From a candidate division Hyd24-12 bacterium UBA5074 (GTDB taxonomy: Bacteria > Fermentibacterota > Fermentibacteria > Fermentibacterales > Fermentibacteraceae), in the NCBI GenBank assembly GCA_002414865.1, contig DIAQ01000033.1, positions 26,958-90,957 on the forward strand: 64,000 nt of DNA. The letters run 5' to 3'. This document shows, piece after piece, positions 1,610-42,958 of the stretch. The translations under genes and the position numbers were made by a program. Positions within the stretch are counted from its first letter, which is position 1. The number at the start of each line of letters is the position of its first letter. Below the pieces are notes generated by a model. The model did no database searches, was not told where the DNA came from, and saw nothing but the letters and a program-made list of their open reading frames with translations.

Positions 1610-1679
1610 CAGCCCTGATACCCTCGTCCATAGTACGGACGCGAAGGTGTAATTGTTAACCCGTGAAAGGGGGTTGTTC

Positions 1680-6696: not shown

Positions 6697-6719
6697 CGCC
6701 CGACACGCCGGAGGCAGGC

Positions 6720-9796: not shown

Positions 9797-10323
9797 TGGC
9801 CGTCGTGCGGGCGGCCATAAGGCTCAAGTCGTCGGACCCCGTGGCCGGAACAGCTCTGCGGGCCCTCTCCAGGGCCATGCCGGACTCCTGTCCCGAGGCG
9901 CTCTCCCGCTACGACCTGTGGGAGTTCGACCTCCCGGGCGGCCGCGAGGAGGTCCTGGCCATCCTCGCGAGGTTCCCCGACATATTGAATCCCAACAAAC
10001 AGGAGTGCTTCTTCCCGGAGGAGGGACTCCTGCCGGGTGAGAGCCCCTCGCTGACATGGGTCTCCGTGGAGGTCTCCGAGAGATCAGGCTCCACAGGCTC
10101 CACCTGGAGCCAGGTGATAGGCCGTGCAGGCTTCGAGCTGCGGGGATTGAGGCTCCTGACGCTCTGGAGGCTGGGGTACCCCTCGGCCGTGGGTTCCGCC
10201 CGGGCCCTCGAGGCTGCGGGGGAGACCGCAGTCTCCGTCTCGAGGAACCGCGGGCTGCTTTCCAACCCTGTTTCACAGTCCGCGGAAGTATCGGCCGCAC
10301 TTTCAGGAGCCCGAAGCCTTTGA
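9796..10323 (+). CDS. purS: PurS, tandem-duplicated (two PurS-like repeats in one polypeptide)
   Basis: ATG overlaps the purQ stop. Two consecutive PurS-like segments of about 80 aa each; the second carries the ...LLSNPV signature. Confidence 0.7.
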   Translation: MAVVRAAIRLKSSDPVAGTALRALSRAMPDSCPEALSRYDLWEFDLPGGREEVLAILARFPDILNPNKQECFFPEEGLLPGESPSLTWVSVEVSERSGSTGSTWSQVIGRAGFELRGLRLLTLWRLGYPSAVGSARALEAAGETAVSVSRNRGLLSNPVSQSAEVSAALSGARSL

Positions 10324-25762: not shown

Positions 25763-26230
25763 ATGGCCGCTCTGTTGCTCTTCAGCAGCGCGTTCAGTGA
25801 TGGCGGGCCGATCCCTGCACTCCATACCTGCGACGGGGCCGACATCTCGCCCCCGCTCTCCTGGCAGGCACAGGACAGCTCGATCGTCTCCTTTGCCCTC
25901 GTCTGCGAGGACCCCGACGCGCCTCTCACGACATGGACCCACTGGGTGATCTTCAACATCCCTGCCACGACCGATTCGCTCCCCCAGGGTCTTTCCACGG
26001 AGTCCCGCCTTCCCGACGGCTCCTGCCAGGGTCTCAACAGCTGGGGGCGCACCGGATACGGCGGACCCTGCCCTCCTTCCGGCACCCATCGCTACTTCTT
26101 CAGGCTCTACGCCCTCGATGCAATGCTCGATCTCCCGTCCCGCTCACGCCCCGCGGAAGTCGCGAGGGCCATGGACGGCCATGTCATCTACTCGGCGAGC
26201 CTGATGGGCACCTACTCCAGGCACAGGTAG
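25763..26230 (+). CDS. PEBP/YbhB-YbcL family protein
   Basis: GGPIPALHTCDGADISPPLSW, DPDAP and PCPPSGTHRYFFRLYALD are canonical. Confidence 0.85.
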   Translation: MAALLLFSSAFSDGGPIPALHTCDGADISPPLSWQAQDSSIVSFALVCEDPDAPLTTWTHWVIFNIPATTDSLPQGLSTESRLPDGSCQGLNSWGRTGYGGPCPPSGTHRYFFRLYALDAMLDLPSRSRPAEVARAMDGHVIYSASLMGTYSRHR

Positions 26231-26238
26231 GGCGCCCC

Positions 26239-27453
26239 GTGCGCCCCGAAGGCCTCCAGGGCAGCGTCCATTCACCGCTGTGGGCGCTGGACCCCGGCGT
26301 TGTGTTCCTCAACCACGGTTCGTTCGGGGCCTGCCCCCGCGAAGTGCTCGCCCACCGGAGGGCGCTCATCGAGGAACTCGAGTCCGAGCCCATGGACTTC
26401 CTCGTCAGGAGATACCCTGGCCTTCTCGGCGAGCAGATATCCTTCCTCGAGTCGTTCCTCGATGCCGAGCCCGGCTCGATCGTGCTCGTGCAGAACGCCA
26501 CGGTAGGCGTGAACACGATCCTCCGGAGCCTCCGGCTCGGACCCGGCGACGAAGTCCTGGTGACCGGCAGCGAGTACTTCTCGACGAGGAACTCCGCGCG
26601 CTCCGTCACCGAGGCCGCAGGAGCCTCGGTCAGGATGGTCGGGATCCCGTTCCCGCTCTCTGATCCCTCCGAGGCCTCGGATGCCATCCTGTCCGCCGTG
26701 ACCCCCCGGACGCGGCTCGCTGTGATCGACCACATCGCGAGCCCGACGGCCCTTGTATTCGACGTCGAACAGATAACGGCCGCGCTGACATCGAGGGGCA
26801 TCGAGGTGCTGGTCGACGGGGCGCACGGACCGGGCGGCGTCGATCTGAGCCTCCGCTCCGTAGGCGCGTCATACTACACCGGCAACTGCCACAAGTGGCT
26901 TTGCAGCCCGAAGGTGTGCGCTATACTCTATGTCAGGCCGGACAGGCAGGAGGGCGTCCACCCGCTCGCGATATCGCATGTCCGGGCCGACCTCGACACC
27001 CCTCTGTCGGATTTCCAGCTCGAGTTCATGTGGAACGGCACGCCCGACCCCACGGCCGCGCTGAGCGTCAGGAAGAGCGTGGAATACATGGCCTCGATCC
27101 TGCCGGGGGGCTGGACGGCCATAAGGGAGCGGAACAGGGCGTTGGCGACCGAGGCCGGCCGCAGGCTCTCGTCGGCTCTGGGGCTCCCGCCTCAGGCGCC
27201 CGACTCCATGACGGGGCCCATGGCGGCGGTCCTGCTGCCGTGGAGGCAGCCTCCCGAACCTCCCGGAGTTCTCTGGCTCGATCCGCTTCAGGTCTGGCTG
27301 AGGGAGGAGAGGGGCATAGAGGTGCCGGTCACCTGGACTCCCGGACCGCGGAGCAGGCTCCTGCGGCTCTCCGCTCAGCTCTACAACTCGCCGGAGGAGT
27401 ACGACTACCTGATCGAATCCGTCCTCGAGTGCCCATTCCTCGGAGCCGACTGA
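26239..27453 (+). CDS. Class V aminotransferase (cysteine desulfurase / IPNS-epimerase-like)
   Basis: GTG start after the PEBP stop. VFLNHGSFGACP N-terminus. PLP-fold family. Confidence 0.75.
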   Translation: MRPEGLQGSVHSPLWALDPGVVFLNHGSFGACPREVLAHRRALIEELESEPMDFLVRRYPGLLGEQISFLESFLDAEPGSIVLVQNATVGVNTILRSLRLGPGDEVLVTGSEYFSTRNSARSVTEAAGASVRMVGIPFPLSDPSEASDAILSAVTPRTRLAVIDHIASPTALVFDVEQITAALTSRGIEVLVDGAHGPGGVDLSLRSVGASYYTGNCHKWLCSPKVCAILYVRPDRQEGVHPLAISHVRADLDTPLSDFQLEFMWNGTPDPTAALSVRKSVEYMASILPGGWTAIRERNRALATEAGRRLSSALGLPPQAPDSMTGPMAAVLLPWRQPPEPPGVLWLDPLQVWLREERGIEVPVTWTPGPRSRLLRLSAQLYNSPEEYDYLIESVLECPFLGAD

Positions 27454-27460
27454 CCGGCGA

Positions 27461-28651
27461 TCAGGCTGCCGGCTCGAACCAGCCCCGCGTCCGCAGGCAT
27501 ATCTTCACGAGCATCAGCATCACGGGCACTTCGATCAGCACACCGACCACGGTCGCCAGCGCCGCTCCCGACGAGAGGCCGAACAGCATCGTGGCCGTGG
27601 CGATGGCCACCTCGAAATGGTTCGAGGCCCCGATCATCGCCGCCGGCGCCGCATCCTCGTAGCGGAGTTTCAGGAGCCTCGCGAGCCAGTACCCGAGCCA
27701 GAAGATCAGGTTGGTCTGGATGAAGAGGGGAATGGCGATCCAGAGGATCGTGAGGGGATTCGAGAGGATCGTCCCGCCCTTGAAACTGAACAGGAGGACC
27801 AGGGTCGTGAGAAGGGCGACGATCGTGATGGGCGTGAGGACATGGAGGAACTTCTCCCTGAACCACCGCTCGCCCCTTGCCCTGACGATCCACCTCCTGG
27901 AGAGGTATCCCGCCACCAGGGGCAATGCCACGTAGATTGCGATGGACAGCGCCAGTGCCTGCCATGGGACCGGCAGCCTCCCGACGCCCAGCAGGAATCC
28001 GCCGAGCAGTCCGTAGAGAACCAACATCGACAGAGAGTTGATGGCGACCATCACGAGCGTCAGCCCGTCGTTGCCCCTGGCGAGATAGCTCCAGACAAGG
28101 ACCATGGCCGTGCATGGCGCTATCCCCAGCAGGATGCATCCTGCGAAATAGCTGCGCCACAGTGGTACCTGCAGCATCTTGATCCCGTCGGAGAGGACCA
28201 CCGTGCCCGCCCCGTGTGTCGCTCCGACCGGCAGGTCCAGGCCGAAAGGCATCTTCACCAGGTCCGTCGCGTCGGTTCCGATGAACGCGCGGAAGAGAAC
28301 CCCCAGAAACAGCAGGGCGATGGCGTACATCGTGAAGGGCTTGATCGCCCAGTTCACGAATAGAGTCAGCCATACGGGCCTGCCGCTCCTGCCGGCCCTG
28401 ACCACCGAAGCGAAGTCGATCTTCACCATGATCGGGTACATCATCAGGAAGAGGCAGATGGCGATCGGGATGGAAACCACCGGCGCGCCGTTCACGAAGA
28501 TCGAGAATCCATCCAGCCTGGTCGCCAGAGCGGGCGCGAGCCTGCCGAGTATGATCCCCGCGACGATGCACAAGCCAACCCACACGGTCAGATACCGCTC
28601 GAACACGTTCGACATCCTGCGGTCTGCAGCCGGGCACGAGGTTCCGCTCAT
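27461..28651 (-). CDS. arsB: ACR3 family arsenite/antimonite efflux transporter
   Basis: FERYLTVWV...[14 protein letters not shown] and [12 protein letters not shown] are ACR3 signatures. The start could instead be the internal Met at MSNVFERY. Confidence 0.85.
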
Positions 28652-28727
28652 CGCCCCTCCCTGTCCACGATCGCCTCAATCCCTGCGCAGCTCGCGAATC
28701 CATTTCGCGCAGGAGTTGGAAGGCGCT

Positions 28728-29435
28728 TCATATGGCTTTTTGCAGCATATAGATACCTGCCAGGATGACGAGGGCTCCGGCGGCGCGCCGCAGGATGGCG
28801 AGAGCTCGGGACTTCTCGTTCCAGCTCAGCAGTCTGCAGGCTGTCCCGGAGAAGGTGCCTGCGGCGACGATCACGCCACAATGGCCGATGGCGAAGCAGC
28901 CCATCATGGCTGCGGAGAGGACTGGCCGAACGGCCTGTGCGGCCAGGACCACCCCGAGCAGCGGGGCGATGAAGGCAAAGGTGCAGGGCCCCGCCGCAGC
29001 CCCGAAGACGAGGCCATAAAGGGCGGAACCCAGGAGCCCCGACCTTCTCCGTCCCGGCATCGCAACTCGTGGCGCCGGCAGGGTGAAGACCTCCATCAGG
29101 TTCAGACCGAACAGCATCAGCAGGACGGCAAGAATGATGCCCCCGGGTTTCCCCATGTCTCCCGCAATGCGCCCCGCGCTTAACGTGATGACTCCCAGGG
29201 CCGAAACGGCAACCAGGACCCCGGCGGCGAATGACGCCGAGATTCGGAACGCCTTTCTCGTGGAGGTCTCGGGATCCTTCGAGATGTAGCCCACGAGCAG
29301 GGGGATGCTGGCGAGATGGCATGGGCTGAGAAGAATGCTCAGCATTCCCCAGACCATGGCGGCGGCAAGCCCGACAACGGGGGAGGATCCTTCGACCGCT
29401 CTCCCCAGGCCGGTCAGGAATTCACTCACCGGCAT
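28728..29435 (-). CDS. ccdA: Cytochrome c biogenesis protein CcdA / DsbD-core transmembrane thiol-disulfide electron transporter
   Basis: LSPC motif (SILLSPCHLASIPLLVGYI) and the second Cys region (GAAAGPCTFAF). Six TM helices. Confidence 0.8.
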   Translation of the reverse strand: MPVSEFLTGLGRAVEGSSPVVGLAAAMVWGMLSILLSPCHLASIPLLVGYISKDPETSTRKAFRISASFAAGVLVAVSALGVITLSAGRIAGDMGKPGGIILAVLLMLFGLNLMEVFTLPAPRVAMPGRRRSGLLGSALYGLVFGAAAGPCTFAFIAPLLGVVLAAQAVRPVLSAAMMGCFAIGHCGVIVAAGTFSGTACRLLSWNEKSRALAILRRAAGALVILAGIYMLQKAI

Positions 29436-29838
29436 CCTCCGGTATCACGTCGTATCCCAGCTCGGTCCACTTCGCGACCATGTCCTCGGCCGATACGACG
29501 CCCTCGTGCCTCCAGAGCTCGGTTCCGGTCTCCGAGAGGAAGATCTGCGTCGGGATCACCCTGATGCCGTAGGTGCGCGCTGCCGCCTGGTTCTCGTTCA
29601 CGTCGACGAAAGAGATCTCGAGGGTCCCCTGCGTCATGTCCTCGAGACGGTCGAGCTCGGTCATCATGGTCTGGCACGGTATGCACATCTGCGAACCGAG
29701 ATCGAGGACCTTCGGCAATGCCGTCAATGTCGTGTCCGGAGCTTCCAGGCGCTCGGTTCCCGTGTCACGGGTCAGGACTGCTGCGGCTGCAAGCCCGCCG
29801 ACTACCAGGACTATCGCTGCCTTGGTCAATGTCTTCAT
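29422..29838 (-). CDS. Membrane-anchored thioredoxin-fold protein (TlpA/ResA-like), CxxC = CIPC
   Basis: N-terminal TM anchor. Thioredoxin fold with CIPC. Overlaps ccdA by 14 nt. Confidence 0.75.
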   Translation of the reverse strand: MKTLTKAAIVLVVGGLAAAAVLTRDTGTERLEAPDTTLTALPKVLDLGSQMCIPCQTMMTELDRLEDMTQGTLEISFVDVNENQAAARTYGIRVIPTQIFLSETGTELWRHEGVVSAEDMVAKWTELGYDVIPEDAGE

Positions 29839-29872
29839 CGGAGTGAATCCGTCCTTCGGAATCTGATGTTGT

Positions 29873-30112
29873 CTACTTCCCGGTCAGTATGGCCGCTATC
29901 TCATCCACTCCCGGGACTCTGCCCATGACCCTGACCTCTCCATCCACAACGAGAGCCGGAGTCATCATCACGCCGAACTTCATGATCTCCCTGATGTCCG
30001 TAACCTTCTCGATCGACACGCCCTGGAGCTCCGCCTTCTCGACTGCCTTGTGGACGTGCTCCATGAGCTTGATGCATTTCGGGCAGCCCGTTCCCAGCAC
30101 TTGAATAGTCAT
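29873..30112 (-). CDS. Small thioredoxin-family protein (redox-active disulfide protein 2-like), CxxC = CPKC
   Basis: MTIQVLGTGCPKCIK. This 79-aa family commonly pairs with COG0701 permeases in ars-type operons. Confidence 0.8.
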   Translation of the reverse strand: MTIQVLGTGCPKCIKLMEHVHKAVEKAELQGVSIEKVTDIREIMKFGVMMTPALVVDGEVRVMGRVPGVDEIAAILTGK

Positions 30113-30132
30113 CTCTTACCTCCAGTTCCGCA

Positions 30133-31428
30133 TCAGCTCGCGAAGGTGCCGAAGATGAACCCGGTGAAAGTTGCGAGAACGACCACGAGAGAAACGAAGA
30201 CCACCGTTTTCTTCGCACCCATGATGCTCCTGAGGACGAGCATGCTGGGCAGGGACAGTGCCGGGCCGGCAAGGAGAAGGGCCAGGGCCGGGCCTTTGCC
30301 CATCCCGGAACCGAGCAGTCCCTGAAGGATGGGTATCTCCGTGAGCGTGGCGAAGTACATCAGCGCGCCGGAAACGGAGGCGAAAAGATTCGCGAGCAGC
30401 GAGTTGCCGCCGACGGCTCCAGCGATCCATGTGGATGGGATCATCGCCTCATGGCCGGGCCTGCCCAGGAGGAACCCGGCGACGAGCACGCCTCCCAGGA
30501 GCAAGGGAATGATCTGACGGGCGAAGCCGACCGTCGCGTCGAACCACTCCCGGAGCTGGGGGCCACCTGTGGCGGAGAGGGCGCCCACAGCGATGACACC
30601 AGCCGAGAACGCGTAGATCGGATGCTCCGGCCACAGCAGCGCAAGGGCAGTGACGGGAACGGAACCCAGAAGCACTCTCCTCCATCCGACCTTGAACTCG
30701 AGCACGAGGATCACGGCCAGGAGAACGGAGAATGCCGATGTGATGTACCACTTGATCTGAGCTACGAAGGCCCAGAAGGGAGCCGCCCCTTCAGGGCTGC
30801 CCCAGTTGGCGAAGACGAGGATTCCGGCCATGGAGGCGAAGTACAGAGCTGTTTTCCAGAGTGGTCGCTGAGGAGCCCCCGGCGCCGTCGCCATGCTGGT
30901 TCGCGTCTTCTCTGACGAAGCCTTGCGGAAGAACAGGCTCATCAGGAGGCCGATGACAACGCTGAAGGCTACTGCGCCGACGGCGCGGGCGACTCCGATC
31001 TCCAGCCCGAGCACCCTCGCCGTCATCACGATGGCCAGGATATTGATGGCGGGGCCGCTGTATAGAAATGCCGTCGCTGGCCCGAGCCCTGCTCCCATCG
31101 TATAGATGCCGGCGAAGATGGGCAGCACCGTGCACGAGCAGACGGCCAGAACGGTCCCGGATACCGAAGCGACTCCGTACGCCTTGAATCTGTTCGCCCC
31201 CGGTCCGAGGTATCGCAGGACGGAGTCCTTGTTCAGGAAGACGCCGATGGCGCCCGCGATGAACAGGGCGGGGACCAGGCAGAGGATCACATGAAGGCGG
31301 GCGTATTCGTTGAGCATGAAGAGGGATTCCCGGACTGCACCCTCGAACCGCGGCGAACCGACCGGAAGGAACCAGGCTGCGAGAAGAGCGGCAGCCAGGA
31401 GGAGAAGCGTCTTCGTCGTCGAAGTCAC
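30133..31428 (-). CDS. COG0701/DUF318 permease (ArsP-like), CSC motif
   Basis: Polytopic membrane protein with the LAVCSCTVLPIF motif. GTG start overlaps the arsR stop (GTGA). The ATG at 31515 would overlap arsR by 90 nt. Confidence 0.75.
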   Translation of the reverse strand: MTSTTKTLLLLAAALLAAWFLPVGSPRFEGAVRESLFMLNEYARLHVILCLVPALFIAGAIGVFLNKDSVLRYLGPGANRFKAYGVASVSGTVLAVCSCTVLPIFAGIYTMGAGLGPATAFLYSGPAINILAIVMTARVLGLEIGVARAVGAVAFSVVIGLLMSLFFRKASSEKTRTSMATAPGAPQRPLWKTALYFASMAGILVFANWGSPEGAAPFWAFVAQIKWYITSAFSVLLAVILVLEFKVGWRRVLLGSVPVTALALLWPEHPIYAFSAGVIAVGALSATGGPQLREWFDATVGFARQIIPLLLGGVLVAGFLLGRPGHEAMIPSTWIAGAVGGNSLLANLFASVSGALMYFATLTEIPILQGLLGSGMGKGPALALLLAGPALSLPSMLVLRSIMGAKKTVVFVSLVVVLATFTGFIFGTFAS

Positions 31429-31754
31429 TGCTTGTTCTCCTTCGGGCAGGCCGGGAGCCTGCAGGCCCCTCCCGCGATCACGTTCTCCACGCACTGGAAG
31501 AAATCGAGGACGCATCTCACCGCGAGGGTGTAGTACACCTTCGTGCCCTCCTTGCGGTCCGCCGCGAGGCCCGCGCTTCTAAGGACGGAGAGGTGTCTCG
31601 ACACCGTAGAGATGTCCAGGCCGACCTCTGCGGAGAGGTCGCCCACGGTCCTCTCACCTGTCGAGAGCGCATCCACGAGATGCAGGCGGGCGGGATTGGC
31701 GAGGGCGGAGAGTATCGATGCCCTTCTTCGATAGATCTCGTTGTTCGACGACAT
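31425..31754 (-). CDS. arsR: ArsR/SmtB family transcriptional regulator
   Basis: HTH block LSALANPARLHLVDALSTGERTVGDLSAEVGLDISTVSRHL. C-terminal Cys pairs. GGAGGAG ribosome-binding site. Confidence 0.85.
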   Translation of the reverse strand: MSSNNEIYRRRASILSALANPARLHLVDALSTGERTVGDLSAEVGLDISTVSRHLSVLRSAGLAADRKEGTKVYYTLAVRCVLDFFQCVENVIAGGACRLPACPKENKQ

Positions 31755-31895
31755 GGTTCTCCTCCTTGCAAACTTATGCAAATATACAAATATTCGTTCC
31801 TGGATCAACAGGAGCTCGATCTTGGCAATCGCGGACATTTCCGCGATACTGATCGAAACCGCGTGGAAAAGCAGCCTTGCATGCGAGGAGGCAAG
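31755..31895. promoter_or_regulatory. AT-rich divergent intergenic region (putative arsR operator / bidirectional promoters)
   Basis: The only AT-rich stretch for kilobases. Direct repeat CAAATAT-A-CAAATAT and palindromic TTGCAA, between divergent arsR and the selenoprotein candidate. Confidence 0.45.
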
Positions 31896-32537
31896 ATGGG
31901 GAAGATTCTGGCTGTTCTGCTGCTGGCCGTGCTGCCCGTCACCGCAGCCACCATAACGGTCGGCAGCCCTCAGATATCGTCGAGCGATCCCTGGTGCGGC
32001 TCCTGAAGCCCCCAGATGCGCTACCAGGCGGTAGTGCTGGGCGAAGAGATGCAGGGAGCCTGTGACATCCTCTCGGTGGCATGGCAGCGGACCACTTCGG
32101 GGAACGACCAGGGCCATTACTATGACGTCAACATCTACATGGGCCTCTGTGCATCGGACCAGCTCGGCTCGGTCTTCGAAGACAACTGGGTGCCGGGCAC
32201 CAAGACGCTGGTATTCTCCACCGACCAGCTCGACCTGTCCGCCGGCGTCAACGAATGGGAGCCGATCACGCTCGATGCGCCATACTGGTACGGCGGTCAG
32301 CAGAACCTGCTCCTCGAGGTCGAGTGGGGCTCCGCCAACACCTCCTACAGTTTCTACACATGGAAATGGGATACCGGGGCCGTGCGATCGATCAAGGCCG
32401 TCGACCTCGCCGCGCCGTCGGGCATAATGTCGACCCAGATGTCCGAGCTCCAGTTCACGGCAGACCTCGACCTGGAGGTCGACACCTTCGGCTGCATCAA
32501 GACCCTGTTCATCGGCGGAGAGGAGCGGGGGGAATGA
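31896..32537 (+). CDS. Candidate secreted selenoprotein 1 (signal peptide; C-G-S-U with in-frame TGA at 32004-32006)
   Basis: ATG sits 5 nt after GAGGAGG. Signal peptide MGKILAVLLLAVLPVTAA. The upstream and downstream ORFs share one frame and are split only by TGA. The downstream region is homologous to paralog 2 from the first codon after TGA. A hairpin begins 11 nt after TGA. Confidence 0.6.
32018..32037 (+). promoter_or_regulatory. Candidate bacterial SECIS-like hairpin (8-bp stem, AGGC loop) 11 nt downstream of TGA
   Basis: GCGCTACC-AGGC-GGTAGTGC. Same position and stem as in paralog 2. Confidence 0.45.
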
Positions 32538-33172
32538 AGATCCTGCCGCTGCCCCTGCTGGCCCTTGCATTCCTCGCGCCGGCCGCGACGATAACCATCG
32601 GGCAGGAGGAGCTCTCGGGCGGCGAGCCGCTCTGCTGCTCCTGAGTCGAGTCCCTGCACTACCAGGTGGTGGTGCTCGATTCGGAGATCGGGGGAGCGTT
32701 CCAGATCCAGGAGCTGTCACTCGTGCGGCACAGCTCGGGTTCTACGCCCGCCCCGACGAACTTCAGCGATTTCCAGATCTGGTTCGGACTGACCGATTCC
32801 GACCAGCTCTCGTCGATGTTCGAGGACAATTTCATCCCCGGCACACGCACGCTCGTGTTCGACCGCGACTCGCTCTACCTTTCCGCGAGTCCGGGCGAGC
32901 AGATCGACTTCGAGCTGGACCAGCCCTTCTGGTACGGAGGAACGCACAACCTCGTGGTCGAGATCCTCTGGTCGGACGGCGAGGAGATCGGCTCCGAGTG
33001 CGTGTACACCTGGCAGTGGAACACGGGCGCCATGAGGTGCGCGTCAGGCCCGTACACGGCGTCCTCGGGCAGCCTCACCAGCATGATCCCGATGCTGGTC
33101 CTCACAGGAGTGCAGGCGCTCGACCAGACCACTTTCGCGGCGGTGAAGTCGTCCTTTTCCGGGAGCCCCTGA
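32534..33172 (+). CDS. Candidate secreted selenoprotein 2 (signal peptide; C-C-S-U with in-frame TGA at 32642-32644)
   Basis: ATG overlaps the gene 1 stop (ATGA). Signal peptide MKILPLPLLALAFLAPAA. Single frame interrupted only by TGA. About 40% identity to paralog 1 across the TGA. Hairpin 11 nt after TGA. Confidence 0.6.
32656..32675 (+). promoter_or_regulatory. Candidate bacterial SECIS-like hairpin (8-bp stem, AGGU loop) 11 nt downstream of TGA
   Basis: GCACTACC-AGGT-GGTGGTGC. Confidence 0.45.
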
Positions 33173-33288: not shown

Positions 33289-33365
33289 GCGCCCGTAGCT
33301 CAGCTGGATAGAGCAGCGGACTTCTAATCCGCAGGTCTCGCGTTCGAGTCGCGACGGGCGTACCA
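33289..33365 (+). tRNA. tRNA-Arg (anticodon TCT)
   Basis: Cloverleaf GCGCCCG-TA-GCTC...CTTCTAA...TTCGAGT...CGGGCGT-A-CCA. CCA is encoded. G1-U72 wobble. Confidence 0.85.
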
Positions 33366-33371
33366 CTCTCC

Positions 33372-33399
33372 GGAAGGCCTTCCCGGCAGGCGGCCTTCC
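33372..33399 (+). terminator. GC-rich hairpin downstream of tRNA-Arg (GGAAGGCC...GGCCTTCC)
   Basis: 8-bp perfect stem with a 12-nt loop. No U-tract. Confidence 0.4.
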
Positions 33400-33478
33400 G
33401 TTCCACCATCTCCAGGCCCGCCCTCCCGTGGGCCGGCACCGACTCAAGGCTCCCGCACGGACCCGGGCACGATACGGA

Positions 33479-33506
33479 GGAAGGCCGCCCTAACGGACGG
33501 CCTTCC
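33479..33506 (-). terminator. GC-rich hairpin downstream of tRNA-Lys (GGAAGGCCG...CGGCCTTCC)
   Basis: 9-bp stem with a 10-nt loop. It shares the stem sequence of the hairpin at 33372. Confidence 0.4.
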
Positions 33507-33513
33507 TGCACGA

Positions 33514-33589
33514 TGGTACGCCCCCCGGGAATCGAACCCGGAACCCACGGATTAAGAGTCCGTTGCTCTACCAATTGAGCTAGGGGCGC
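33514..33589 (-). tRNA. tRNA-Lys (anticodon CTT)
   Basis: Reverse complement gives GCGCCCC-TA-GCTC...CTCTTAA...TTCGATT...GGGGCGT-A-CCA. Confidence 0.85.
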
Positions 33590-33597
33590 AAAAATCC

Positions 33598-33674
33598 TGG
33601 GGTGGGAGACCGGACTCGAACCGGCGACCACTTGATCCACAGTCAAGGGCTCTACCAACTGAACTACTCCCACC
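33598..33674 (-). tRNA. tRNA-His (anticodon GTG, with G-1)
   Basis: Reverse complement gives G-GTGGGAG-TA-GTTC...CTGTGGA...TTCGAGT...CTCCCAC-C-CCA. G-1 and C73 are typical of tRNA-His. Confidence 0.85.
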
Positions 33675-34414: not shown

Positions 34415-35728
34415 ATGGGGAAACGCAGAACCTTTTCGGGGGGGGCGCACCCTGACGAGCGCAAGGAGCTGGCCGAGCACAGCGCCGTTCGGAAGCTGCC
34501 CGCGCCGAAGGTGATCCGGGTGGCCCTGTGCCAGCATCTCGGAGCCCCCTCGACGCCGCTTGTCGCCAAGGGTGACAGGGTTACGCGCGGCCAGGAGATC
34601 GGTGCTCAGAACGGCTTCATCAGCCTGCCCACCCATTCTCCGGTCGGCGGAACCGTGCTGGCTCTCGAGGATGCGGCGCTGCCGCACAGGAGGTCTGGCC
34701 CCACGATCGTGATCGAGACCTCTTCGGAGGAGGGAGGCGCGGTATTCGAGCCCTGGCCCGAATACTCCAGCCGTTCTCCCCAGGAGGTCATCGAGAGGAT
34801 AAGGGCTGCCGGAGTCTGCGGAATGGGGGGCGCGAGCTTCCCCACCCATGTCAAGCTCTCCCCGCCCAGGGACAAGAAGGTCGACACCCTCATCCTCAAC
34901 GGCGCCGAGTGCGAACCCTACCTCACCTCGGACGCCCGCCTGATGGTCGAGCGCACGGCCGACGTCATCGATGGGATGAGGATCCTGGCCCACGCTCTCG
35001 GAGTCGGGCGGGTCTTCGCGGGCGTCGAGGCCAACAAGCCGGAGGCAGCCGCCGCTCTCGAGGGAGCCGGCGCGGAAGTCATCACTCTGAAGGTGAAGTA
35101 TCCGCAGGGCGCCGAGAAGCAGCTGATCAAGGCCGTCACCGGGCGCGAGGTGCCGGTGGGAGGCCTTCCCATGGATGTCGGAGTCGTCGTGCAGAACGTC
35201 GGGACGGCGGCCGCAGCTGCAGAGGCCGTTCGCGACGGCATGCCCTGCATGCGGCGCATAGTCACCGTCTCGGGCGGTGGGATAAAGGCACCCGGCAATT
35301 TCGACGCATGCGTCGGCACCTCCTTCGCGGATCTCGTCGAGGCTGCGGGGGGCTACTCCGGAGAAGTCGTCAGGCTGCTCTCCGGAGGACCCATGATGGG
35401 CATCGCTCAGTTCACCGACGCCGTGCCCGTGACGAAGGGGACCAGCGGGATCGTCGCGCTGACCTCGCGCGAGGCGAGGTCGCTCTCCGAGGGTCCGTGC
35501 ATCAGGTGCGGGAAATGCGTGGACGCATGCCCGATGGGTCTGGCCCCGTGTCTCATCTCGGAAGCCGCGGAGCACTCCGGCTGGAAGTCGGCCGACGAAG
35601 CCGGCGCCCTGAGCTGCATGGCCTGCGGCACCTGCACCTTCGTCTGCCCCAGCTCCCGCTTCCTCGTCCATTACATCAAGAGGGCCCAGGAGGCAATCCG
35701 CGCCTCCAAGCGCTCCAGGGAGGCATGA
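34415..35728 (+). CDS. rnfC: Rnf electron transport complex subunit C
   Basis: GMGGASFPTHVKL NADH/FMN site. Two 4Fe-4S CxxCxxCxxxCP motifs. Confidence 0.9.
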   Translation: MGKRRTFSGGAHPDERKELAEHSAVRKLPAPKVIRVALCQHLGAPSTPLVAKGDRVTRGQEIGAQNGFISLPTHSPVGGTVLALEDAALPHRRSGPTIVIETSSEEGGAVFEPWPEYSSRSPQEVIERIRAAGVCGMGGASFPTHVKLSPPRDKKVDTLILNGAECEPYLTSDARLMVERTADVIDGMRILAHALGVGRVFAGVEANKPEAAAALEGAGAEVITLKVKYPQGAEKQLIKAVTGREVPVGGLPMDVGVVVQNVGTAAAAAEAVRDGMPCMRRIVTVSGGGIKAPGNFDACVGTSFADLVEAAGGYSGEVVRLLSGGPMMGIAQFTDAVPVTKGTSGIVALTSREARSLSEGPCIRCGKCVDACPMGLAPCLISEAAEHSGWKSADEAGALSCMACGTCTFVCPSSRFLVHYIKRAQEAIRASKRSREA

Positions 35729-36804
35729 TGGCTGAACCGCGCCTCTTCCAGCTGTCCATGTCGCCTCATGTGACATCGCCGCTCAACACGCGGCGGGTGA
35801 TGCTCGACGTGGTGACGGCCCTGCTGCCCGCCCTGGCGGGCGCGATCTGGTTCTTCGGCTTCGTCGACTCTCTGCTGCCCGTCCTCGTGAGCGTCGTCAC
35901 GGCCGTGGCTGCCGAGTACTTCTGCCTCAGGATAATGAAGCGGCCCGTGAACGCCGCGCTGGACGGCAGCGCGATCGTGACCGGCCTTCTGCTGGCCTAC
36001 AACCTGCCGCCGGGAGTCCCCTGGTGGCTGCCCGTCATCGGCTCGGGCTTCGCCATCGTGGTGGCCAAGCAGGCCTTCGGAGGTCTGGGGCACAACATGA
36101 TCAACCCAGCCCTGCTCGGCCGGGCCTTCCTGATGGCGAGCTTCCCGGTCCTGATGACATCCGGATGGCAGGCCCCCTTCGAGTGGAGCGCGCCGGAATC
36201 CCACTTCGAGACGTCCGGCATACCCGTGGAGAACCTGCAGGCCATCCCTGACGCCGACGCCATCTCCGGTGCCACGCCGCTGCGGGTGATGAAGGACTCC
36301 TTCACAATGGAGCGGCACCGCGGCAACGCCGTGAGGGCGCAGCTCGCGAGCGAGGGCACCTACCTCAACCTCTTCCTCGGTCGCCGCGGAGGCTGCATTG
36401 GGGAGACCTCGGGCCTCCTGCTCCTGCTGGGGGCGATCTACCTCGTGGTCCGCGGCGTCCTGGAGCTGAGGCTCCCGCTTAGCTACCTCGGCTCCGTGGC
36501 CCTCTTCGGATGGATCATCGGCGGCCCGGGCCTGCTCCAGGGGGATCCCCTGTTTTCCGTGCTCGCAGGCGGGGTGATCCTGGGCGGCTTCTTCATGGTC
36601 ACGGACATGGTCACCACGCCGGTCACGCCCTGGGGCAAGATCCTGTTCGGCTTCCTGGCCGGTTTCATCACGATCGTCATTCGACGCTGGGGAGGCTATC
36701 CGGAAGGATGCTCATACTCCATCCTCATCATGAACCTCGCCACGCCGCTGCTCGACCGGTTCACCCGGCCGAGGATCCTCGGGGAGGTGGGGAAGCATGC
36801 GTGA
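35725..36804 (+). CDS. rnfD: Rnf complex subunit D
   Basis: ATG overlaps the rnfC stop. NqrB/RnfD polytopic membrane protein. Confidence 0.88.
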   Translation: MMAEPRLFQLSMSPHVTSPLNTRRVMLDVVTALLPALAGAIWFFGFVDSLLPVLVSVVTAVAAEYFCLRIMKRPVNAALDGSAIVTGLLLAYNLPPGVPWWLPVIGSGFAIVVAKQAFGGLGHNMINPALLGRAFLMASFPVLMTSGWQAPFEWSAPESHFETSGIPVENLQAIPDADAISGATPLRVMKDSFTMERHRGNAVRAQLASEGTYLNLFLGRRGGCIGETSGLLLLLGAIYLVVRGVLELRLPLSYLGSVALFGWIIGGPGLLQGDPLFSVLAGGVILGGFFMVTDMVTTPVTPWGKILFGFLAGFITIVIRRWGGYPEGCSYSILIMNLATPLLDRFTRPRILGEVGKHA

Positions 36805-37411
36805 GATGATGCGCCTCGGCCTCATCCTGATGGGCATGAGTCTCATCTGCGCCGCTGCCCTGGGCTTCGTCAACAACCAGACGGAGGACAGGATCGCCGC
36901 CCAGAAGGAGCTCATCCGCCAGCAGGCCATGCAGTCCGTGTCGGCCTCCTTCGGTTCCGACCTCGAGTTCGACTCGCTGTCGGTGGCAGGCCTGGCCAAC
37001 CCCTACGAGGAGACAGGCAGGGTTCTGACCCCCATGGAGATCGTCTCCGGCGGCAGGCGGGTGGGCTTCGTGTTCACGGCCTACCGCAAGGGCTACTCGA
37101 GCGTCATCGAGACCCTCGTCGCGGTCGACACCACCGGGGTGATCTGCGGCAGCAGCATCCTCTACCAGTCCGAGACGCCGGGCCTGGGCACGAAGGCGCA
37201 GGCGCCCGAGTGGATGGCGCAGCTCGCCGGCCGTGACGAGAACGCCCTCGCCGTGGACAAGGACGGCGGGGAGATACACTCCATCACCGGGGCCACCGTC
37301 AGCTCCAGGGCGATAGTCGGCTCGGTCGCCGAGGGCCTGGAGGCCATGAGGGCGGCGGGGCTGTTCGTCGCAGGAGCCCCTGCCGCAGCTGCTGCCGGAG
37401 GTGCTGAATGA
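36797..37411 (+). CDS. rnfG: Rnf complex subunit G (FMN-binding)
   Basis: SITGATVSSRA FMN-attachment motif. Confidence 0.88.
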   Translation: MREMMRLGLILMGMSLICAAALGFVNNQTEDRIAAQKELIRQQAMQSVSASFGSDLEFDSLSVAGLANPYEETGRVLTPMEIVSGGRRVGFVFTAYRKGYSSVIETLVAVDTTGVICGSSILYQSETPGLGTKAQAPEWMAQLAGRDENALAVDKDGGEIHSITGATVSSRAIVGSVAEGLEAMRAAGLFVAGAPAAAAAGGAE

Positions 37412-38016
37412 GCAGGTGGAAGGATCTCACCAACGGGTTCTACACCGAGAACCCGATCTTCAGGATCACACTCGGGATGTGTCCCTTCCTCGCCCTCAGC
37501 ACCTCGGTGCAGAACGCGGTCGGGATGGGCTCTGCAGCCACTTTCGTGCTCATCTGGTCGAACGTGGCGATCTCCGCGCTCCGCAACTTCATACCGGACA
37601 AGATCCGGATTCCGTGCTACATCGTCTTCATCGCAACCTTCGTGAGCCTGGTCGACATGGTCATGGCCGCGTTCATGCCACCTCTCCACAAGGCACTCGG
37701 CATCTACATCCCGCTCATCGTGGTCAACTGCATCATCCTGGGCCGCGCCGAGGCCTTCGCGAACAAGAACACGGTCATGAGCTCGTTCCTCGACGGCATC
37801 GGGATGGGAGTGGGCTTCACCCTCGCCATGCTCCTGATGGCCTCGATCAGGGAGATCCTCGGCAACGGCACATGGTACGGCATCAACATCCTGGGCCATG
37901 CCTACACCAGCCAGCCTGTGCTGCTCGCCATCCTCCCGCCGGGAGCCTTCATACTGATGGGCTTCGTGCTCGGCGTCTTCGCCATCATCGACCGCAGGAA
38001 GGAGCGTGCAGCGTGA
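37408..38016 (+). CDS. rnfE: Rnf complex subunit E
   Basis: NPIFRITLGMCPFLA is an RnfE/NqrD signature. Confidence 0.88.
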   Translation: MSRWKDLTNGFYTENPIFRITLGMCPFLALSTSVQNAVGMGSAATFVLIWSNVAISALRNFIPDKIRIPCYIVFIATFVSLVDMVMAAFMPPLHKALGIYIPLIVVNCIILGRAEAFANKNTVMSSFLDGIGMGVGFTLAMLLMASIREILGNGTWYGINILGHAYTSQPVLLAILPPGAFILMGFVLGVFAIIDRRKERAA

Positions 38017-38651
38017 GCCCGGCTCTACTGCTCTCGGCGGCCGTCTCTTCCACCGGTGCGGGAGACGGGGGCTTCGCCCAGATCATGGGTCTCGTGATAG
38101 GCGGCATCCTGATCAACAACTACGTCCTGTCGCGATTCCTCGGCATCTGCCCGTTCCTCGGGGTCTCGAAGCAGCTCGACTCGGCCATCGGCATGGGCGC
38201 CGCCGTGGTTTTCGTCATGGCGATGACCGGTGCGGCGTGCTGGGCTCTCTGGGAGCTGGTCCTGATCCCGATGCACCTCGAGTACCTTAGCACGATCGTC
38301 TTCATCCTCATCATCGCCGCCCTGGTCCAGCTCGTGGAGATGATCCTGCTGAAATACAGCCCCGCCCTCTACAAGGCCCTCGGGATCTATCTCCCGCTCA
38401 TCACGACGAACTGCGCCGTCCTCGGCGTCGCAGTTCTCAACAAGGACGCCGGCTACAACCTGGCGATGAGCGTCATCAATGCAGTGTCGGGCGCCCTCGG
38501 GTTCGGCCTGGCTCTCATCCTGATGGCCGGCTTGAGGATGAGGATGGAGTACTCGGACATCCCCCTGGCCCTAAGAGGAAAACCCATCACCTTCATCCTC
38601 GCGGGCCTCATGTCCATAGCCTTCCTCGGCTTCGCCGGGCTGGGGGTGTAG
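38013..38651 (+). CDS. rnfA: Rnf complex subunit A
   Basis: GTG overlaps the rnfE stop. NNYVLSRFLGICPFLGVS is an RnfA/NqrE signature. Confidence 0.88.
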   Translation: MSPALLLSAAVSSTGAGDGGFAQIMGLVIGGILINNYVLSRFLGICPFLGVSKQLDSAIGMGAAVVFVMAMTGAACWALWELVLIPMHLEYLSTIVFILIIAALVQLVEMILLKYSPALYKALGIYLPLITTNCAVLGVAVLNKDAGYNLAMSVINAVSGALGFGLALILMAGLRMRMEYSDIPLALRGKPITFILAGLMSIAFLGFAGLGV

Positions 38652-38652
38652 G

Positions 38653-39708
38653 ATGCACTCCCTAATCATCCAGGCGATGATCTCCTCGCTCCAGGCTCCC
38701 GCTCTCGGCGAAGCGGTCGCCATCCCGGCCGCGCTGCTGGGAGCCACCGGCCTGCTGCTCGGCGTCGGGCTCGCCGTCGCCGCCCGGAAGCTGGCCGTGG
38801 AGAAGGACCCGCTCGTCGCAGAGCTCGAAGCGCTGCTCCCGGGGGCCAACTGCGGAGGCTGCGGATTCCCTGGCTGCAGCGGCTTCGCCAGGGCGCTGGC
38901 CGAGAAGAGGGCCGAGCCCTCCTGCTGCGTTGCGGCCAATGCGGCGACGCTCTCCTCCCTGGCCAGGGCGATGGGTGTCGAGCTGTCCGAGCAGGTGCGC
39001 AAAGTCGCGCTCGTCCAGTGCAACGGCGGCCGTTCCGCCGTCGATGCCTTCGCCTACGACGGTCCCCGCTCCTGCACCTCGGCCATGCTCGTCATGGGAG
39101 GGTCGAAGGCCTGCAGGTTCGGGTGCCTCGGCATGGGTGACTGCGTGTCCTCCTGCCCGTTCGGTGCGCTCTCGATGGGCGAGAAGGGGATTCCCTCCGT
39201 GAACCGCGAGAAGTGCACCGGATGCGGAAAGTGCGTCTCGACCTGTCCCAAGAAGCTCATCGTCCTGTGGCCCGGGAACCGGGAGGTGGCCGTAGCCTGC
39301 AGCAACAGGGAGCGCGGACCCGTCGCCCGGAAGGGATGCGGCGTCGCCTGCATCGCCTGCGGGAAATGCGAGAAGGAATGCCCGGTCCAGGCGATCGCGA
39401 TCACCGACTTCCTGTCCCGCATCGATGCCGCGAAATGCATCAACTGCGGGATATGCGCCACGGTGTGCCCCACGGGCGCGATCATCGACAGGGCGCCGGC
39501 CCGCCCCAGGGCTTATATCGACACGAGCTGCATCGGCTGCACGATATGCGCCAAGGTGTGCCCCACCAAGGCAATAACCGGCGAGTTGAAGCAGAAGCAC
39601 GAGGTCGATGCCGCGAAGTGCGTGGGCTGTGGCCAGTGCGTTCCCAAGTGCCCCAAGAAGGCGATCAGGCTGATGGGTTCGCTGGCCTACTCCAAGGAGG
39701 TCCGCTAG
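38653..39708 (+). CDS. rnfB: Rnf complex subunit B (polyferredoxin, extended form)
   Basis: N-terminal anchor plus the GANCGGCGFPGCSGFA motif. Multiple 4Fe-4S ferredoxin repeats. Confidence 0.88.
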   Translation: MHSLIIQAMISSLQAPALGEAVAIPAALLGATGLLLGVGLAVAARKLAVEKDPLVAELEALLPGANCGGCGFPGCSGFARALAEKRAEPSCCVAANAATLSSLARAMGVELSEQVRKVALVQCNGGRSAVDAFAYDGPRSCTSAMLVMGGSKACRFGCLGMGDCVSSCPFGALSMGEKGIPSVNREKCTGCGKCVSTCPKKLIVLWPGNREVAVACSNRERGPVARKGCGVACIACGKCEKECPVQAIAITDFLSRIDAAKCINCGICATVCPTGAIIDRAPARPRAYIDTSCIGCTICAKVCPTKAITGELKQKHEVDAAKCVGCGQCVPKCPKKAIRLMGSLAYSKEVR

Positions 39709-39710
39709 CC

Positions 39711-41080
<1,370 letters not shown>

Positions 41081-41090
<10 letters not shown>

Positions 41091-42958
41091 TAGCAGGCAC
41101 CGCCGGCCACATCGACCACGGCAAGAGCTCTCTCGTCAGGTGGCTCACCGGGCGCGATCCCGACCGCCTGAAGGAGGAGAAGCTCCGGGGCATCACCATC
41201 GAGCTCGGATACGTCTTCATGCCCCTGCCGGACGGAGGCGTGCTCGCGTTCATAGACGTTCCCGGACACGAGAAGTTCGTCCGCCAGATGGTAGCAGGCG
41301 TCGCCACCGTGGATTTCTTCCTCCTGGTCGTGGCAGCCGACGAAGGGGTCATGCCCCAGACCCGCGAGCATTTCGATATCCTGAGGCTTCTGGGGGTCAG
41401 GGACGGAATGGTGGCTCTGACGAAATGCGACATGGTGGACCGGGAAGTCCAGGACATGGCGGAGGAGGAGGTCTCGGACCTGTTCGCCGGGGCCGGCCAT
41501 GCCTCGATCCCCGTCCACAGGGTCTCCTCCGTCACCGGGGAAGGCATGGAGGATCTGCGCGCGGCGTTGATCGCCAGGGCCGCCAGCATCAGGAGGAGGG
41601 ACGCCAGCGACCGCTTCAGGCTGGCCATCGACAGGGTCTTCACCCTCCAGGGCCACGGCACTGTCGTCGCCGGTACGGTTCTGTCCGGTTCGGTGCACAG
41701 CGGTGAGACCGTGGAGCTCCTGCCCGCCGGGAAACCTTACCGGGTCAGGGAGATACGAGTAAACGAGGGAAGGACCCAGGGGGCCGGCACGGCAGGGGAC
41801 AGGGTCGCCCTCAATCTGGTCGGTCTCGAGAAGGAGGACGCCTGGAGGGGGAGCTGCCTCGCAGTGCCGGGATGGCTCCAGGCCCGGAGCGGCTTCGACG
41901 CCGAGTGCACCATGCTTCCGGACGCCATGCTCGAACACAGGCAGAGGGTGCGTTTCCACACAGGGACCGCCGAGGTCATGGCCTGGGCCATACCGATCTC
42001 TACCGAGGGGCTCGCCCCGGGCATGACGGGCTTCGTCCATTTCGAGCTCGAGGAGCCCGTCGTCGCCGTTCCCGGCGACAGGTTCGTCATCAGGAGGTAT
42101 TCCCCGGTGTCCACCATCGGGGGAGGGCTGATACTGGAGGCCGGCACCGCCCGCATCAGGGCGAAGGCCAGGGACGAGCGCCTCAGGCGGGTTGAAATGC
42201 TCTCCGGGGGCGACATCCGGGGCATTCTCCTGGCCAAGCTCGCATCGAAGCGCTGGGAGGGATTCGCCCTGGCCGAGGCCTCCCGGGAGCTGGGCAGGGG
42301 AGCGGAGGAGATCGCGTCCGCGATGTCCTCCCTGGCAGCGGACGGGGAAGCGCTCATCCTCAGGGACGGCTCCGCGGAGAGAGCCGTGGCTGCATCGACA
42401 GCTTCCGAAGCCATGGCAAGGCTGACCGCAGCACTTTCGGACTATCACGCCGAGAGACCGCTCAGCGCAGGTCTTCTCTCCTCGCAGGTCGCTCGTCTCC
42501 TGCCCGAGGCGCCCCAGTGGTTCCTGAGGGGGATTCTCGGGAGGATGGCCGAGTCCTCGACCATCCGCAGATCCGGCGACAGGATCGCCCTCGGCTCCTT
42601 CCCCGCGGAGATCCCGGACCCTCTTCCCGCAAGCGTCCGCTCCCTTCTCGAAGCGGTCGGAGGCGCCGGCTTCCAGGGCTGGGAGCCGCCTCAGGGGACC
42701 GGCTCTGCGCTCGTCGAGTCCCTCCTCGAGCGGGGGCTGCTTCTCGAGCTCGAGAAGGGGCTGCTCACCTCTCCATCCGTCGCGAAGGATGCGGAGGCCT
42801 CTCTGAGATCCACATTCGGCACGGCCGGGTTCCGCCTCGGGGAACTGCGCCAGGCCCTCGGCGTTCCACGGAAAGCTGCCGTGCTCTGGGCCGAGCTGCT
42901 CGACCGGCTGGGCCTCACAGGCCGGAAGGGGGACCTCCGCTTCCTGACGGCCGGCTAG
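41081..42958 (+). CDS. selB: Selenocysteine-specific translation elongation factor SelB
   Basis: GTAGHIDHGKSSLVRWLTG G1 motif, EKLRGITIELGY, and an extended winged-helix C-terminal region of 625 aa. Overlaps selA by 10 nt. Confidence 0.88.

Follow-up and report, generated by a model that had tools for sequence, protein, structure and literature searches.

In the E. coli fdhF gene and in SelD genes, an in-frame UGA is followed by a short stem-loop that lies inside the coding region and exposes a small apical loop with G-G/U, and decoding depends on selA and selB. The minimal selenocysteine insertion sequence (SECIS) of E. coli fdhF reportedly has a spacing of 11 nt between the UGA and the stem. 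Here we describe two tandem genes, gene 1 and gene 2, carried by a 64-kb stretch of DNA from the candidate division Hyd24-12 bacterium UBA5074 (contig DIAQ01000033.1; the whole stretch is called the window hereafter), which share these features, including the 11-nt spacing, and are very probably genuine selenoprotein genes.

The consensus of the bacterial SECIS (bSECIS) has been defined as a loop of 3-9 nt with a G in the first two loop positions, a stem of 4-16 bp, a UGA-to-loop distance of 16-37 nt and an MFE (minimum free energy) of at most -7.5 kcal/mol (PMC13188914). The same review, dated May 2026, lists 119 prokaryotic selenoprotein families, nearly all of them keyed to Pfam or NCBIfam models (PMC13188914). 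The two genes described here are almost certainly the founding members of a family of secreted, lectin-like selenoproteins specific to Fermentibacteria.

Organization of the Tandem Genes

A first-pass annotation, made from the sequence and its open reading frames (ORFs), had described two tandem paralogous genes each containing a TGA in frame, and its coordinates and sequence details for both genes proved to be exact (Table 1). The ATG of gene 2 (32534) and the stop codon of gene 1 overlap as ATGA. Around the internal TGA, indicated by an asterisk, the product of gene 1 reads MGKILAVLLLAVLPVTAATITVGSPQISSSDPWCGS*SPQMRYQAVVL... and that of gene 2 ...TITIGQEELSGGEPLCCS*VESLHYQVVVL.... As annotated, a cysteine is located at position -3 from the TGA in gene 1 and at both -3 and -2 in gene 2. 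Comparison of the two proteins by BLASTP returned 41% identity over 193 aa (E = 9e-46) in an alignment that crosses the TGA, thus confirming the residue-for-residue correspondence noticed earlier.

The use of stop codons was evaluated in the window, which belongs to a genome of 62-69% G+C. A set of 42 rough gene calls based on codon-position GC ended in TGA 29 times, in TAG 13 times and never in TAA, and the conserved genes encoding NrdR, ACR3 and RnfD run to the ends of their profiles and then stop at TGA, in agreement with the standard code deduced at first. A coding-like codon-position GC on both flanks of a TGA was displayed in the whole 64-kb window by the internal TGAs of genes 1 and 2 only. 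Since TGA is the commonest terminal stop and a coding signal on both sides is restricted to these two codons, a genome-wide reassignment of UGA was rejected.

Conservation of the Internal TGA among Homologs

A scan of one genome per species returned 43 loci (L numbers), and the copy counts given below refer to the window plus these 43 loci. Every named locus belongs to Candidatus Fermentibacteria, Fermentibacteraceae, Aegiribacteria, Sabulitectum or Hyd24-12. Upstream sequence was available for 42 loci. In 41 of them the same aligned codon, located after the signal peptide and preceded by the motif xIxIG...P(F/W)C(A/G)S, was TGA and in none TAA or TAG, the sole cysteine being the TGC of L035. 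When the tandem second copies were included, the figures became 52 TGA and 1 Cys among 53 copies, with the 52 TGA copies coming from about 30 assemblies and the reading frame kept across the TGA in all of them. The family is lineage-specific and rich in paralogs, with at least four genes per genome. The tandem of a type-1 and a type-2 gene is kept in L001-L007, L026 and L027, where the second copies also contain the TGA.

Natural cysteine forms were found in the databases as well. Full-length homologs of about 205 aa carry Cys at the selenocysteine (Sec) position within motifs such as PFCGDC, PFCGFC, PWSNGC, PFGSC and LDPC, and Cys is aligned to the UGA in the database proteins P0049, P0052, P0055, P0073, P0081, P0082, P0089 and P0093. 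TGA and Cys are therefore equivalent at this position, as the first-pass annotation had anticipated for true selenoproteins, and the metagenome-assembled genome JAFGKQ01 contains three TGA forms together with one Cys form.

Both flanks of the TGA are under purifying selection. In the 19 codons upstream of it, substitutions are dominated by third positions in four subfamilies, and the DPFCAS peptide, for example, is constant despite variation in the codons for Asp, Pro, Cys, Ala and Ser. These data bear directly on the possibility that the loci are pseudogenes or assembly errors in which the TGA is a nonsense mutation, a reading that can appeal to the internal stop codon itself and to nothing further. 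As 52 independent copies, taken from about 30 assemblies, all have TGA at this codon, with selection on both sides and an RNA hairpin conserved along with it (see below), we consider its probability negligible.

A second alternative is that each locus holds two genes, namely a 36-aa secreted pre-peptide ending at the TGA and a cytoplasmic protein of 170 aa that is initiated or reinitiated separately. An ATG does occur four codons past the TGA in gene 1 and in many orthologs, and gene callers use it, but homologs differ at the called start, which is M, L, N, I or F; many of them, including gene 2, have Leu, Asn, Ile or Phe there, so the downstream ORF has no conserved start codon. A Shine-Dalgarno sequence was not found before the start of the downstream ORF, whereas a strong one precedes every signal-peptide ATG and is present in all orthologous loci. 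Moreover, the frame is kept in every TGA form, the Cys forms are single continuous ORFs, and the internal stop is always TGA while the terminal stops of the family genes include all three codons (TGA 23, TAG 17, TAA 12). In the AlphaFold2 (AF2) model of the full-length Cys form P0049, the strand before the Cys (VITIGS) is built into the beta-sandwich with a predicted local distance difference test (pLDDT) score above 90. Two separate genes per locus are thus highly improbable, and the domain encoded downstream of the TGA is conserved among homologs.

The consequences of the internal TGA for database entries were evident. Among 5.8 billion proteins searched, the matches formed 23 clusters. Each of these is 152-173 aa long and covers only the part after the TGA, which indicates that gene callers everywhere truncate the family and agrees with the splitting of the genes predicted at first. 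NCBI, JGI, ENA and Logan contain only the truncated downstream ORF, which is a current annotation error. Spurious antisense ORFs are also called over the signal-peptide half, as in L044, where 54-aa and 76-aa ORFs occupy 7577-7987 (-); in the window, the mechanical ORF list includes a 431-aa antisense ORF at 31425-32720 (-), an ArsR frame extended across gene 1. One locus on a short contig, L042 (94-396), shows a second in-frame TGA after about 100 residues, which may be due to a frameshift, a pseudogene or an assembly problem.

A SECIS-Like Hairpin Tied to the TGA

The first-pass annotation had proposed a bSECIS search across both TGAs. In genes 1 and 2 a hairpin with an 8-bp stem and a 4-nt loop was detected downstream of the internal TGA (Table 1), and the consensus bSECIS values given above apply to 51 of the 51 TGA forms scored. 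The scored hairpins have a stem of 6-8 bp and a 4-nt loop with G at loop position 2 followed by G or U (AGGU 39, AGGC 6, AGGG 3, AGUU 2, AGGA 1). The UGA-to-stem spacer is 11 nt long in 45 genes, against 14 nt in the other 6, corresponding to UGA-to-loop distances of 19 or 22 nt, and the MFE ranges from -7.5 to -14.0 kcal/mol. The hairpin is also present in L042, which was scored apart from the 51. When both strands of 0.77 Mb were searched, the core motif of the hairpin was matched at 54 sites; 53 of these lie at the family distance past a TGA and the remaining one is interrupted by a contig end.

The pairing was then analyzed in an alignment of 43 sequences, in all of which the six inner pairs are intact. 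Pair 27-34 is C-G in 27 sequences, U-A in 16 and broken in none, and the switch consists of a synonymous Tyr TAC->TAT change coupled to a change of Val to Ile or Met in the partner codon. Similarly, pair 23-38 is G-C in 20, G-U in 14 and A-U in 9 sequences, and pair 25-36 is U-A in 29, U-G in 11 and C-G in 3. Two-sided changes were counted in 32 cells, compared with 9.2 +/- 3.4 in shuffles, and pairing collapsed in slid-register controls.

The structure is tied exclusively to TGA forms. It was absent in all six Cys forms for which DNA was available (L035, L047, L049, L050, L051 and L052), which retain only 3-5 of the 8 pairs and an energy of -0.5 to -5 kcal/mol, even though a related peptide is retained. 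This result is relevant to the suggestion that the hairpin is a mere by-product of the conserved peptide R-Y-Q-V-V-V-L with no function as RNA. The stem does lie wholly inside conserved codons, and CAG, which encodes the Gln in 51 of 51 hairpins, also accounts for 91% of the Gln codons in the rest of these genes. Against this suggestion, the pairing is absent from the Cys forms although their peptide is still similar (RYQxLxL, HFQVLYL); the residue at +2 from the Gln is Leu, which breaks the stem, in 8 of the 8 Cys forms seen, and Val, Ile or Met in the TGA forms. In addition, the synonymous TAC->TAT change occurs only with the complementary G->A in the partner codon (16/16), and His (CAC) is never paired with Ala (GCG). 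There is consequently very little chance that the hairpin merely reflects the peptide.

Selenocysteine Machinery and Weighing of the Selenoprotein Assignment

E. coli SelA, SelB and SelD sequences were used as tblastn queries, and all matches were re-verified with NCBIfam. Both selA and selB are present in the window, 7-10 kb downstream of genes 1 and 2 (Table 1). The SelB query aligns to the window selB over residues 1-605. In the selA ORF the domain spans residues 173-616, and the 172-residue N-terminal extension overlaps an RnfB-like gene, so the true start is probably near 39700. The two genes directly follow an Rnf-type cluster (34909-42958, +, together with selA and selB) encoding RnfD, a flavin mononucleotide (FMN)-binding RnfG-like protein, an Rnf-Nqr membrane subunit and an RnfB-like ferredoxin.

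Further components were observed in a relative. L029 contains a SelD that itself has a TGA at the canonical Sec site, TAVG*AAKVGPG (TIGR00476, 326 bits). The order at 6520-10495 (+) is an EF2568-type cysteine desulfurase (SclA-like), selD, yedF (TIGR03527) and a member of the family described here, all on one strand and with the family member directly after yedF. As a separate observation, a class-V aminotransferase gene occurs near the tandem pair: in the window (25933-27453) the distance is about 4.5 kb, and in L002 the gene directly adjoins the pair on its upstream side.

Several points weigh against the selenoprotein assignment. Neither ARAGORN nor Rfam, the latter at gathering and permissive thresholds, detected selC, the gene for tRNA-Sec, in the window or the loci, and no selC adjoins selAB in the window; selD is likewise not in the 64-kb window. 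The signal peptides of genes 1 and 2 are calls made by eye, with an equivalent hydrophobic N-terminus in all homologs. The shuffle control used for the hairpin ignores phylogeny, and the C-G->U-A switch may represent few independent events. Finally, in L052 (3001-4383) a Cys form (3001-3618) is followed by a divergent TGA form of metagenomic origin (TGA at 3886, PFSC*GSQVVVVQED) that has a deletion of the RYQ segment and lacks the standard hairpin; this form could be an exception, a gene with another SECIS or a decaying copy.

The lack of a tRNA-Sec in the window and the loci also favors the idea that the hairpin drives read-through of the UGA with no selenocysteine, by near-cognate insertion of Trp or Cys or by a lineage-specific suppressor tRNA. 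On the other hand, the natural replacement is always Cys, which is the signature of Sec and not of Trp or Gly, the spacing and loop of the hairpin fit the SelB-type bSECIS model, and selA and selB in the window are accompanied by a canonical SelD(U) in relatives. We therefore regard read-through of this kind as improbable.

The selenoprotein reading first put forward was hence supported by the conservation of the TGA, its replacement by Cys, the hairpin, selA and selB, and the SelD(U) of a relative, with some residual doubt because selC and selD were not found in the window. From these data we infer that Sec is inserted at the UGA. Translation would start at the signal-peptide ATG with its strong Shine-Dalgarno sequence, and the hairpin 11 nt past the UGA, with its 8-bp stem and A-G-G-N loop, would recruit SelB-GTP-Sec-tRNA(Sec), so that selenocysteine would be inserted at the internal UGA in place of termination. 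The mature protein of roughly 195 aa would then be exported.

Table 1. Positions of the features discussed, in window coordinates.
Feature	Position	Strand	Remarks
Gene 1, probable selenoprotein precursor	31896-32537	+	213 aa; signal peptide, N-terminal strand, C-G-S-U loop, beta-sandwich, TFGxIK tail
Gene 2, paralogous probable selenoprotein precursor	32534-33172	+	212 aa
In-frame TGA of gene 1	32004-32006	+	predicted to be read as selenocysteine
In-frame TGA of gene 2	32642-32644	+	predicted to be read as selenocysteine
Terminal TGA of gene 1	32535-32537	+	
Terminal TGA of gene 2	33170-33172	+	
Shine-Dalgarno of gene 1	31886-31891	+	AGGAGG, 4 nt before ATG (read from sequence)
Shine-Dalgarno of gene 2	32520-32525	+	GAGGAG, 8 nt before ATG (read from sequence)
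Predicted Sec-type signal peptide, gene 1	31896-31949	+	MGKILAVLLLAVLPVTAA; judged by eye
Predicted signal peptide, gene 2	32534-32587	+	MKILPLPLLALAFLAPAA; judged by eye
bSECIS-like hairpin, gene 1	32018-32037	+	GCGCUACC-AGGC-GGUAGUGC; 11 nt past UGA, -12.1 kcal/mol
bSECIS-like hairpin, gene 2	32656-32675	+	GCACUACC-AGGU-GGUGGUGC; 11 nt past UGA, -12.2 kcal/mol
selA, L-seryl-tRNA(Sec) selenium transferase	39213-41090	+	TIGR00474, 509 bits vs cutoff 268; tblastn
selB, Sec-specific elongation factor	41081-42958	+	TIGR00475, 302.5 bits vs cutoff 242; tblastn
ArsR/SmtB regulator	31425-31757	-	
ArsP-type (ArsP_1) permease	30133-31515	-	weak SO_0444 and SaoE similarity
MTH895/ArsE thioredoxin-like protein	29873-30112	-	
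Thioredoxin with N-terminal extension	29422-29838	-	
CcdA/DsbD-like protein	28728-29435	-	weak TsoB similarity
ACR3	27461-28651	-	TIGR00832, 378 bits

Protein Fold, Motif and C-Terminal Tail

The mature domain had not been recognized at first, and searches gave the same outcome: no Pfam or NCBIfam release 20.0 family at E <= 1 for either window protein, no match in a PDB sequence profile search, and no Pfam match for the Cys forms or for relatives with three repeats. AF2 models were calculated for the post-TGA domain and for P0049 and were all-beta, with pLDDT values of 89 and 92.6, respectively. According to these models, the mature domain is a jelly-roll beta-sandwich resembling carbohydrate-binding modules (CBM) and lectins and does not have a thioredoxin fold. 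The first strand (TITVG) and the C-x-x-U loop would be an integral part of this CBM/lectin/PHR-type jelly-roll.

An exhaustive profile search returned 2,493 relatives, which fall into four groups: truncated calls of about 160 aa; full-length Cys forms of about 205 aa with the Cys aligned with the Sec; three-repeat lipoproteins of about 560 aa lacking the Cys; and giant surface proteins, 1,400-6,500 aa long, which contain up to 14 repeats and in some cases also CBM96, disaggregatase or Big_5 domains. Repeat-module proteins devoid of the Cys/Sec loop include P0028, P0035, P0051 and P0056, and Pfam has no model for the module. These groups indicate that the scaffold is a widespread extracellular repeat module and that the Cys/Sec loop is a specialization of small stand-alone proteins.

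The C-x-x-U redox motif described in the first-pass annotation turned out to be common, occurring in most members, but not universal. The Sec/Cys position is constant, while the upstream Cys may be at -3, at -1 or absent; the motif is C-U in L028, L032, L038 and L041, and the upstream Cys is absent in L037 and in the second copies L026b and L027b.

The C-terminal tail of the family, ...(L)(E/D)xx(T/S)(W/F)GxIKx(L/F)-COOH, is near-invariant and is encoded at 32490-32534 and 33125-33169 in the window genes. The same tail closes unrelated small signal-peptide proteins in Fermentibacteria DNA. An example in the window is the ORF at 1653-2303 (+), which ends ...GLESTTWGAIKGLYN and has no NCBIfam match and a low-confidence AF2 model; other ORFs ending in the tail were found in L001 (-, ORF end 18623), L004 (-, 19950), L008 (14996), L009 (11446), L010 (16346), L023 (-, 1829), L029 (-, 10631), L031 (4460) and L049 (6011). 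The (T/S)(W/F)GxIK tail is probably a lineage-wide sorting or anchoring tag.

Genomic Neighborhood and Possible Function

An arsenic-resistance-like cluster (27461-31757, -) is divergently oriented with respect to gene 1 (Table 1). In L001, L005 and L007 the orthologous pair also has this cluster close by, at a distance of up to about 7 kb, and in L026 homologs of CcdA, thioredoxin and ACR3 are located just 5' of the pair, with ArsR directly upstream on the same strand. Membership of the window neighbors in a Tso/Sao system was rejected, all model scores being far below the curated cutoffs.

Upstream of gene 1, a perfect 8-bp inverted repeat, ATCGCGGA-CATT-TCCGCGAT (31828-31847), separates the -35 hexamer of a promoter-like site (31822-31850) from its -10 hexamer. 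It could be an ArsR operator, but it lacks conservation upstream of the orthologous pairs and was rejected as a conserved operator. Directly 3' of gene 2 there is a tRNA cluster (33289-33673) consisting of Arg-TCT (+), Lys-CTT (-) and His-GTG (-), and other subfamilies adjoin tRNA-Asp or lie near tRNA-Ser genes.

Proteins for transport and resistance can use Sec as a ligand for metals (PMC13188914). With low confidence, we suggest that the family proteins may carry, on the scaffold of a binding module, a reactive selenol that is exported and in most cases accompanied by a vicinal thiol. The proposal is based on the position of the pair next to the arsR-arsP-thioredoxin-CcdA-ACR3 cluster in several genomes and on the family member that directly follows csd-selD-yedF in one genome. 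The selenol would cycle as a selenylsulfide redox center, possibly kept reduced by the CcdA/thioredoxin pair; alternatively, it would act as a ligand of a soft metalloid, for example As(III) or a selenium species.

A number of observations speak against this functional proposal. Most subfamilies occur in unrelated housekeeping contexts, such as the DPFCAS-U subfamily, whose neighbors are ftsZ, rpmB, a gene with a phosphotransferase system (PTS) EIIA domain and the pyruvate:ferredoxin oxidoreductase (PFOR) gene, and no operon partner conserved across subfamilies was found. The fold is that of a binding module and not a redox fold, and an upstream Cys that is missing (PWSNG-U, PIGIG-U) or adjacent (PFGC-U) does not suit an oxidoreductase of the classical dithiol type. 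The binding-module fold and the dispensable upstream Cys together argue against a classical thioredoxin-like oxidoreductase.

A more far-reaching idea, which we put forward as rather doubtful, is that these proteins would constitute the first selenoprotein class to have an extracellular binding module, and not a redox enzyme, as its framework, in which a surface selenol captures an external ligand and the protein is delivered by a new C-terminal tag. If this were true, candidate ligands would be As(III), selenium species and a thiol or disulfide on a polymer or cell surface, captured covalently or by coordination on a lectin-like scaffold, and the (T/S)(W/F)GxIK sorting tag would be common to other Fermentibacteria exoproteins.

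Comparison with Known Systems

The family hairpin is unusually uniform over about 50 paralogs and orthologs, whereas the SelD of L029 has a different-looking structure. The family protein is unrelated to FdhA and SelD and to the catalogued families: there is no Pfam or NCBIfam match among the 119, the families defined by CDD or PANTHER only are set apart by their descriptions, and none is described as a secreted CBM-like beta-sandwich. Some catalogued families are exported and beta-rich, as is the family described here. DUF1573 (PF07610, UGC) and the FCYXU-type TonB-dependent receptor (NF049945, CxxU) are predicted extracytoplasmic selenoproteins with the Sec in a short Cys motif, and the F-C-x-x-U of NF049945 resembles the P-F-C-x-x-U of our family.

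Structural likeness of the jelly-roll was found to the CBMs of acetylxylan esterases (PbeAcXE 7tog, FjoAcXE 7tok), to PHR domains (3gbw, 3no8) and to the tail spike gp29 of mycobacteriophage Bxb1 (9d93), in all cases with an identity of at most 12%. Unlike the family described here, these modules have no Cys/Sec loop after strand 1, and the absence of Pfam and PDB profile matches does not place our proteins in a curated CBM family. A vicinal thiol-selenol motif is common to thioredoxin-fold CxxU/UxxC oxidoreductases, CxxC metallochaperones (MerP, CopZ) and the Sao/Tso selenoproteins, but they differ in fold, and some members of our family do without the upstream Cys. The neighbors in the window show a weak likeness to TsoR, TsoB, SaoE and SO_0444-type proteins, far below the curated cutoffs for the Tso and Sao models.

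Since no catalogued model was matched, no paper among those searched links Fermentibacteria with selenocysteine or selenoproteins, and the databases hold the truncated ORF, we consider the family new; its recoding mechanism is textbook. Fermentibacteria/Hyd24-12 bacteria are common in anaerobic digesters and sediments, and a well-supported selenoprotein family is added in this uncultured candidate phylum. It widens the known range of selenoproteins to a secreted, non-thioredoxin, lectin-like fold with several paralogs per genome. Its minimal SECIS, which hardly varies, and the Sec and Cys paralogs that occur naturally together in one genome are good material for testing how a SECIS is recognized and what advantage Sec has over Cys.

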